Of a DNA stretch of 64,000 bases, positions 33,518-34,702 are shown one piece after another. This stretch comes from an uncultured Chlamydiae bacterium (GTDB taxonomy: Bacteria > Chlamydiota > Chlamydiia > Chlamydiales > JAJFMA01): contig CAVQMM010000001.1 in assembly GCA_963713615.1 (NCBI GenBank), positions 1,888,001-1,952,000 on the forward strand. Direction: 5' to 3'. The stretch's first letter is position 1. Every line of letters begins with the position of its first letter. Made by a program: the position numbers and the translations under genes. The notes beneath the pieces are model-generated. The model had not been told where the DNA came from, did not search any database, and saw only the letters and a program-made list of their open reading frames with translations.

Positions 33518-33741
33518 TAGGATGGCAAATACGGCTCGTTTAGCTTTTTAGGAGTAACACGGATGCACACGGATCTAGGAGGATTTAGAAGGATAGGATG
33601 GCAATACGGCTCGTTTAGCTTTTTAGGAGTAACACGGATGCACACGGATCTAGGAGGATTTAGAAGGATAGGATGGCAATACGGCTCGTTTAGCTTTTTA
33701 GGAGTAACACGGATGCACACGGATCTAGGAGGATTAGGATG
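33518..33741 (+). repeat. Tandem array, 3 x 75 bp, upstream of the GxxExxY gene
   Basis: ggagtaacac recurs at 33551, 33626 and 33701; units essentially identical. Confidence 0.95.
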
Positions 33742-34134
33742 AAGGGAATAGAATGTGAAACGCGTAGGCTCAATCAGGAAAATTCACCAATTACACATCT
33801 GATTATTGGCTGTGCGCATCAAGTCGCTAATACCCTCGGATCTGGCTTTTTAGAATCGGTATATGAAAAAGCCCTAACCCATGAACTCAATAAAGCGGGT
33901 TTAGTGGTGGAAGCCCAACTTCGTATTCCAGTCTATTATGACGACATTATTGTTGGTAATTTTGTGGCAGATTTACTTGTTCAAGATGAGATTTTAGTCG
34001 AATTAAAGTCTGCCAAAGCCTTGGAATCCATCCACTTTACTCAATGCATCAACTATCTGAAAGCCACACGACTTAGACTCTGCCTACTTATCAATTTTGC
34101 CCCAACCGTAGAGATAAAAAGAATAACACTATAA
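33739..34134 (+). CDS. GxxExxY protein (PD-(D/E)XK nuclease superfamily)
   Basis: LGSGFLESVYEKAL (GxxExxY), ADLLV..EILVELK, QCINYLKAT, LLINF; AGGAGG 6 nt upstream. Confidence 0.93.
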   Translation: MKGIECETRRLNQENSPITHLIIGCAHQVANTLGSGFLESVYEKALTHELNKAGLVVEAQLRIPVYYDDIIVGNFVADLLVQDEILVELKSAKALESIHFTQCINYLKATRLRLCLLINFAPTVEIKRITL

Positions 34135-34702
34135 TCCTATTTCTGCTCGATGGATAGGCCATAACTACCATCCTATCCTCCTAAATCCTCCTAGATCCGT
34201 GTGCATCCGTGTTACTCCTAATCCTATTTCTGCTCGATGGATAGGCCATAACTACCATCCTATCCTCCTAAATCCTCCTAGATCCGTGTGCATCCGTGTT
34301 ACTCCTAATCCTATTTCTGCTCGATGGATAGGCCATAACTACCATCAGATCCTCCTAAATCCTCCTAGATCCGTGTGCATCCGTGTTACTCCTAATCCTA
34401 TTTCTGCTCGATGGATAGGCCATAACTACCATCAGATCCTCCTAAATCCTCCTAGATCCGTGTGCATCCGTGTTACTCCTAATCCTATTTCTGCTCGATG
34501 GATAGGCCATAACTACCATCAGATCCTCCTAAATCCTCCTAGATCCGTGTGCATCCGTGTTACTCCTAATCCTATTTCTGCTCGATGGATAGGCCATAAC
34601 TACCATCAGATCCTCCTAAATCCTCCTAGATCCGTGTGCATCCGTGTTACTCCTAATCCTATTTCTGCTCGATGGATAGGCCATAACTACCATCAGATCC
34701 TC
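34132..34702 (-). repeat. Tandem array, 6 full plus 1 partial x 87 bp, downstream of the GxxExxY gene; core inverted relative to the upstream array
   Basis: Units start at 34132, 34219, 34306, 34393, 34480, 34567 and 34654. Confidence 0.95.

Follow-up and report, generated by a model that had tools for sequence, protein, structure and literature searches.

Described enzyme-repeat systems and the GxxExxY cassette

RAYT enzymes are HUH/Y1 transposases that form a covalent tyrosine link and transfer strands, a chemistry that differs from that of PD-(D/E)XK enzymes. MITEs and insertion sequences comprise an autonomous copy and gene-less, shorter ones that end in the same terminal inverted repeats, and the ORF-bearing intervening sequences of 23S rRNA carry four-helix-bundle (S23p/TIGR02436) genes. 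As described in the accessible parts of the REPtron literature (PMC3337134, PMC3116915, PMC8266576), a single-copy small enzyme gene, the RAYT, is flanked by its cognate repeat (REP or REPIN). A genome may hold several gene/repeat pairs, each specific, and the repeats lie outside genes as inverted doublets with variable spacers and in tandem arrangements, with no sign of multiplication of the gene itself. The REP is a palindrome and is often GTAG-tagged. In the accessible portion of the report on Ssn nucleases (GIY-YIG, cd10448; PMC11893778), a small single-domain hydrolytic nuclease gene is flanked by its own motif (NTS/SRM repeats), which is abundant in gene-bearing genomes; transposase chemistry is absent and mobility is hypothesised. 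The SRM, a 20-50-nt hairpin, is cut as single-stranded DNA, and Ssn activity was shown in vitro. RM genes in inverted repeats are described in the part of PMC2853133 that was available.

In this study, we analysed a window of 64,000 nt, meaning the whole stretch of DNA presented here, from an uncultured Chlamydiae bacterium. An earlier note on this DNA had claimed that two inverted tandem arrays with a common core enclose an intact 131-aa PD-(D/E)XK gene between folE and rnpB. The results bore this out. The left array (33513-33735, + strand) consists of 2.9 x 75 bp with 98% matches by Tandem Repeats Finder, carries three gene-facing cores and begins at the folE stop codon, and the right array (34132-34702, - strand) consists of 6.6 x 87 bp with 99% matches and carries six gene-facing cores. 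Both arrays have a 54-nt core in common, in opposite orientation and 94-98% complementary. In a single 54-nt arm (33548-33601, + strand), a 7-nt word is repeated at a distance of 10 bp, and two degenerate copies continue this 10-bp phase. The left core nearest the gene is truncated to 38 nt and donates both the Shine-Dalgarno-like AGGAGG (33727-33732) and the ATG (together 33727-33741, + strand) to the GxxExxY gene (33739-34134, + strand), whose TAA stop forms the first three bases of the right array. The host neighbours are folE on the left (32801-33514, + strand; TIGR00063 match) and the convergent rnpB on the right (34724-35101, - strand; RF00010 match), and the surroundings further include genes for a SpoU RNA methylase and cdsZ (CdsZ/CT398 match); this last match suggests an environmental chlamydia as the probable host. 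The GC content of the gene is 39%, compared with 47% for the chromosome. An Rfam search returned no match inside the arrays, a promoter/terminator scan gave no more than chance, and the RNA signal in public runs was rnpB, from many organisms.

The note had also reported a gene-less copy near 17299-17494, and this was confirmed. Its arms (17308-17358 and 17427-17477) are 100% complementary over 51 nt and enclose a 68-nt spacer, and the pair (17308-17477) lies directly after the stop of a 1937-aa ORF. This ORF (11483-17296) and another of 3080 aa (18622-27864) are the two very long ORFs of the window. The window contains the 17-nt heart of the core 11 times (three in the left array, six in the right array and two in the gene-less copy), compared with 0.03 expected, and 0/100 shuffles gave as many. 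As a foldback, the gene-less pair is strong (z -16.8).

The cassette resembles the REPtron in having a single-copy small enzyme gene flanked by its repeat; the genome likewise holds two GxxExxY genes that have diverged, each paired with a word family of its own, and extragenic inverted doublets with variable spacers and tandem arrangements. It differs in the enzyme, which matches PF13366 and gives no Y1 match, and in the arm, which is a non-palindromic direct repeat with a 10-bp period and no hairpin. The analogy with RAYT/REP drawn in the note is well supported for the pairing of gene and word (association, clade co-variation and genome co-occurrence, see below), but not for the fold of the single arm (fold energy -1.2 kcal/mol, z -0.13; opposite strand, z 0.77), which is no better than that of shuffled sequences. 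With the Ssn systems the cassette shares a small single-domain hydrolytic nuclease gene flanked by its own motif, and a motif that is abundant in gene-bearing genomes. The Ssn motif stands on both sides in 42% of cases according to the portion of PMC11893778 available, and the GxxExxY word at 115/170 loci. It departs from them in its predicted fold and in an arm that is unfolded on its own, and it is known here from sequence. The three GIY-YIG matches in the genome lie in frames of 489-615 aa, away from the cassette. The GxxExxY cassette would work like RAYT/REPIN and Ssn/SRM but is outside both by its enzyme fold and its non-hairpin single repeat.

The family studied here has an apparently autonomous copy and gene-less copies with the same inverted ends, as MITEs and insertion sequences do, but it lacks a DDE transposase, a target duplication and crisp ends, and its spacers are unrelated to the gene. 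The 23S rRNA intervening sequences also place a small gene in a foldback, and TIGR02436 genes outside rRNA have inverted word arms; however, the four-helix bundle is no nuclease fold, the words are others, and the cassette lies outside rRNA. Unlike the RM genes in inverted repeats (PMC2853133, in the part available), the cassette has no partner DNA methylase, and profile matches of the neighbouring genes revealed no DNA methyltransferase adjoining it.

The core family across the chromosome

We searched the genome for the 23-nt core with up to three mismatches and found 164 copies, compared with 0 for each of 10 shuffled 23-mers. With a 520-nt cut-off, the cores group into 65 loci, and neighbouring cores form 52 convergent and 0 divergent pairs. 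The GxxExxY gene of the window is enclosed by one of the 52 convergent pairs, and the genome holds only this one copy of it. The spacers of 36/52 pairs are mutually related as mosaics, the gene-bearing spacer being outside that group. ORFs of at least 150 aa (crude calls) cover 80% of the chromosome, yet only 12/164 cores overlap one and 152/164 lie outside. Singlets carry 0.82 mismatches and paired arms 0.45, a comparison of few singlets (11 against 104 paired arms, p 0.14).

The outer ends of the loci lie within 60 nt past a stop codon in 51/117 cases and near a start in 5. Private variants are common to both arms in 13/52 pairs, compared with a shuffled mean of 4.5 (0/5000 shuffles as high), suggesting that a pair is copied or corrected as a unit. 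Both observations, like the strong folding of the pair, would suit a system whose target is RNA: the two arms would base-pair once transcribed, as in rRNA intervening sequences, the stem would be processed by the protein or by RNase III, and the pairs would function at the 3' ends of mRNAs. The weaker fold matches of the protein (Z 5-6) also include cap-snatching and tRNA-splicing endonucleases. We consider this explanation improbable, because pairing alone would not keep the word and its spacing over 50% protein divergence, because DNA dispersal and tandem arrays are left unexplained, and because the stronger fold matches are DNA nucleases.

TAG stops were enriched beside the arms (32/51, p 1.6e-5; 10/21 in a second word family, p 0.12). 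A TAG stop as the target site was considered and set aside, since the stop can come from the TAGGA with which the arm itself ends. A search for target duplication at the 52 loci was negative, the longest flank-shared word averaging 5.58 against 5.50 in shuffles, a comparison with fuzzy ends that would still allow duplications of 2-3 bp.

Tandem runs of the core number 26, with locus-specific units of 37-121 bp. The tandem arrays, which the note had tied to the gene, are not peculiar to it: 24/26 runs sit at gene-less loci. The linkers, described in the note as constant and each array's own, are indeed uniform within an array, but linkers like them were also found at other loci. The junctions of the 26 runs vary in position and thus reveal no cut site.

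The long arrays could in principle be assembly artefacts of a repeat-rich genome, and no public contig spans an array. We regard this as highly improbable, because the chromosome is a single 3.9-Mb contig (in an assembly of three), the right array has two ordered unit variants (inner two versus outer five), and the tandem runs have units of their own at each locus; moreover, the gene-in-arms cassette stands even if the arrays were collapsed. Public short-read contigs fitted the junctions of arm and gene and of array and rnpB without any difference (33725-33919, 33944-34188 and 34679-34867), the runs behind them being possibly not independent of the assembly and the array copy numbers resting on the assembly. 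The low-depth assembled contigs of public runs, which hardly cover the arrays, spanned no array and contained no excision joint.

We then compared the other repeat-gene families of this genome. It contains exactly two GxxExxY genes. The second (gene at C1:1855144-1855536, locus C1:1855038-1855617) is 39% identical to the window gene and is enclosed by a different inverted word, whose 80-101 copies form 25 convergent pairs and no divergent ones. For two other GxxExxY-type word families, with 57 and 34 hits, the genome has no cognate gene. The window holds a gene-less inverted pair of the 57-hit family (18468-18571). Its word has an 8-bp period, forms 8 convergent pairs and no divergent ones, and is found beside GxxExxY genes in relatives. 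Also present in the window are inverted pairs (11050-11229 and 48635-49182) of the genome's two most abundant repeat families, which number about 300 and about 260 loci and each flank a RAYT-like gene of their own (L008 and L005), and an inverted pair of another family of about 120 loci (61625-61788), in which no enclosed enzyme gene was found. A 36-bp tandem repeat of 2.5 perfect copies lies at 62139-62228.

Two four-helix-bundle-like genes of the genome (C1:1850849 and C1:3217661) lie inside inverted arrays of a TGGAC word. Triplets of this word were counted at 75 loci, where convergent pairs are about as frequent as divergent ones.

Association of word and gene in other genomes

To place the cassette, we examined relatives of the bacterium. 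GxxExxY genes were present in 26/60 relatives, and the 19-nt word of the window was found in 0/60. We fetched 39 loci of relatives, leaving out the extra copies of one genome (G017); the full-length genes among them are only 34-47% identical to the window gene, and those compared belong to other clades, mostly with other inverted words. A scan of a genome collection for close orthologues returned two loci, neither of them close.

As the note had proposed, relatives were checked for an empty folE-rnpB site: folE adjoins rnpB in G002, G003 and G004, and the GxxExxY gene and the window word are absent there, but none of these three sites is pristine. In G003 and G002, the gap holds a gene-less pair of the word that flanks the relative's own GxxExxY gene (264 and 324 genomic matches, respectively). 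Across the gaps of three relatives (L040:2166-2264, L041:2160-2636 and L044:2139-2724), a different repeat family was seen in each, which gives the site the look of a hot spot. As the sites of the relatives are without the gene, gene and word probably arrived together in this lineage by horizontal transfer, with which the low GC content of the gene is in keeping.

One relative, G017, contains about 60 GxxExxY matches, and the 30 regions examined (L143-L172) include several full cassettes and many identical 5'-deleted ones. These copies were multiplied together with outer flanks that they have in common, next to an IS-like transposase fragment, which we take to be of the IS5-like family. We rejected them as proof of self-mobility, because the shared flanks extend past the arms and adjoin the transposase fragment, as expected of hitch-hikers.

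The note had called for a survey of GxxExxY flanks for inverted cores. In a first pass, 88/110 loci were usable, 22 being dropped for short flanks or partial matches. An inverted flank score of at least 16 was obtained in 60/88 and a direct one in 26/88, the latter mostly because either side carried whole hairpins. The second pass covered 196 loci, 186 with a near-full domain and 170 with flanks, and used word classes that are patterns defined in this analysis. By these patterns, an inward word stood on both sides at the 115/170 loci mentioned above, compared with 0/72 distant control windows; it stood on one side at 21/170, and 34/170 were unclassified. An outward word on both sides was found at 9/170 loci. 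The clade of the window gene (80 metagenome loci picked by similarity) has the same word, with a spacing of 10 nt in 197/200. Sister clades have word periods of 8 and 9 bp, which weakens an argument from the helical turn.

We next compared word class with protein relationship. On a quick-search tree of 136 labelled rows, with the 34 unlabelled loci left out, 14 changes of word class were counted, compared with 52.9 after shuffling (0/200 shuffles as low). Among 106 genome-derived loci, the class was the same in 85/686 pairs below 35% identity and in 33/36 pairs at 65-80%, in a test whose significance is overstated by kinship among pairs and genomes. Paralogues less than 45% identical in one genome had the same class in 8/46 cases, and genes at least 55% identical in different genomes in 149/176. 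For distant genes, sharing of a class was no more frequent between paralogues of one genome than between different genomes (8/46 versus 288/1982). In the sequences compared, the word class follows the protein clade and not the host.

The dispersed words were then counted in whole genomes. In 60 genomes of a second phylum, at least five word matches were found in 20/30 genomes with a GxxExxY gene and 0/30 without, and at least ten in 16/30 and 0/30, the counts including the arms at the genes themselves. At least five words were found in 0/12 genomes with a Y1 transposase only, in 0/12 with four-helix-bundle genes only, and in 6/10 with GxxExxY but no Y1. Among the chlamydial relatives, at least five words were present in 23/26 genomes with the gene and 5/34 without, a comparison that is partly circular because the two chlamydial patterns derive from flanks of these very genomes. 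By these counts, dispersed words track the GxxExxY gene and not RAYT-like or four-helix-bundle genes. In a viral collection, we examined 80 of at least 140 word loci; no GxxExxY gene lay within 1.2 kb (0/80), and 21 had a short convergent pair.

These counts bear on the possibility that the gene is a passenger. RAYT or IS transposases would move the repeats as REPINs or MITEs, one pair would have captured the gene, and co-variation would result from linkage. In favour of this, six Y1_Tnp matches and very abundant repeats flanking RAYT genes are present in the genome, the G017 cassette hitch-hikes with an IS-like unit, and some longer pairs of the genome enclose unrelated sequence. However, all six Y1_Tnp matches lie outside the cassette; three have their own abundant flanking repeats, and none is flanked by the window word. 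The genomes with Y1 and without GxxExxY lack the words that those with GxxExxY and without Y1 often have, and neutral linkage would not preserve a 7-nt word at saturated synonymous sites. We therefore think it improbable that the gene is a mere passenger.

The GxxExxY protein and its proposed action

The window protein matched TIGR04256 with 135 bits (cut-off 35) and also PF13366 (PDDEXK_3). No transposase family match was found, PF13366 being the only Pfam hit and PF01541 also absent, and a search for a solved structure by sequence gave no relative below E 0.03. The residues G36-E39-Y42, D78, E88-x-K90 and Q102-x3-Y106 are intact; D78, E88, K90, Q102 and Y106 do not vary among 60 close homologues, and the catalytic D, K, Q and Y are conserved at 98-99% over 136 rows. 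Of 93 gene pairs, in a set with no DNA-level partner for the window gene, 55 were unsaturated, and every one of these had a dN/dS below 0.5 (median 0.10), as expected for purifying selection in relatives. The predicted model (pLDDT 89) had PD-(D/E)XK proteins as its top fold matches: AF1548 (Z 8.3, rmsd 2.2, 85 residues), Cas4 SSO0001 (Z 7.2) and Hjc (Z 6.1), from a wide VIA search in which a Z of 7-8 can alone reflect a common arrangement. The window protein is thus a member of the GxxExxY family, with a predicted PD-(D/E)XK fold and its active-site residues intact. In the part of a PD-(D/E)XK superfamily survey that was available (PMC3424549), PF13366 is listed as of unknown function.

The word, with its fixed spacing, is kept despite saturated synonymous sites, follows the clade, ignores the host and is dispersed only with the gene, which makes the protein its simplest reader. 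It is therefore likely that the GxxExxY protein binds the word of its arms sequence-specifically. We consider the best explanation to be a RAYT/Ssn-like partnership of enzyme and repeat with a third fold, probably nicking, at the GxxExxY cassette, with a probability of roughly 0.55. Among the mirror-image repeat pairs spread over the chromosome, the window locus is the one with this GxxExxY gene, and the protein would recognise the short tandem word in the arms. Because a single arm has no hairpin and the words lie 10 bp apart, the word may be read as duplex, either on the chromosome itself or where a folded-back pair forms its stem. With 164 sites in the genome and no methylase gene beside the cassette, an enzyme that broke both strands would kill the cell. 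The protein would therefore have to nick, cut in a structure-dependent way or be tightly repressed, and it may nick the word rather than make double-strand breaks.

To our knowledge, a hydrolytic PD-(D/E)XK enzyme is incapable of RAYT-type strand transfer, and spread would have to go through host repair. Host recombination or repair started at the nicks would spread gene-less pairs and expand tandem arrays, which fits the fuzzy ends, the missing target duplication, the mosaic spacers and the local tandem growth. The gene itself, with one copy here, would rarely move. Both cutting and mobilisation by the GxxExxY protein are predictions of the analysis.

Several points speak against the partnership, namely the lack of a target duplication and of a fixed junction, the orphan word families, the 5/34 relatives that have at least five words but no gene, the 34/170 loci without a classified word and the 21/170 with one on a single side. 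Moreover, four-helix-bundle genes elsewhere had an inverted score of at least 16 in 10/19 cases and a direct one in 1/19, with GxxExxY-type words in 0/19 and 6-7-nt words of their own. As these genes encode no nuclease, the layout requires none, and cutting may not build it. The protein might accordingly bind the word without its cutting being the cause of spread: small genes in inverted word arrays would be copied by a host factor or some other factor acting in trans, and binding would serve self-regulation or protection. The shared layout (with two such genes in this genome), the donation of a ribosome-binding site and start codon by the arm, and the orphan word families suit this explanation. 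A pure binder, on the other hand, would not need the conservation of catalytic residues or a dN/dS near 0.1, and the dispersed words need the GxxExxY gene in the 60 sampled genomes. We judge binding alone to be unlikely, with some chance of being right.

The partnership reading was also compared with the literature. A link of GxxExxY, PF13366, PDDEXK_3 or TIGR04256 to repeats was not found in the searchable full-text literature, while subscription journals or supplements might hold one; the portions available of PMC3424549 and 10.1101/2021.01.26.428298 do not tie the family to repeats. The association of GxxExxY genes with cognate repeats is real, general and apparently undescribed in print. 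Among the genomes sampled from two bacterial groups, 26/60 and 30/60 had the gene. Its flanks point to a candidate substrate for each GxxExxY subfamily, and this genome holds a built-in specificity control of two paralogues with two words. If GxxExxY proteins cut, a third unrelated fold would have converged on the RAYT/Ssn way of life, with a bearing on the transposase-free spread of extragenic repeats, and the family would be a source of very small site-specific nucleases.

A wider reading is that GxxExxY proteins are a very large family of sequence-specific PD-(D/E)XK nickases of about 130 aa, each with its own non-palindromic word of 8-10-bp period, which would seed and amplify foldback repeats without a transposase. 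We offer this tentatively and would sooner doubt than accept it. If true, a third class of enzyme would underlie the extragenic repeats of bacteria, and thousands of natural pairs would allow its protein-to-word code to be read. An Atlas search matched GxxExxY clusters only, and a representative search returned 13,545 clusters at E <=0.001. Five proteins of 250-270 aa (P0121, P0122, P0132, P0135 and P0146) contain two GxxExxY-like stretches and are tandem-domain forms.
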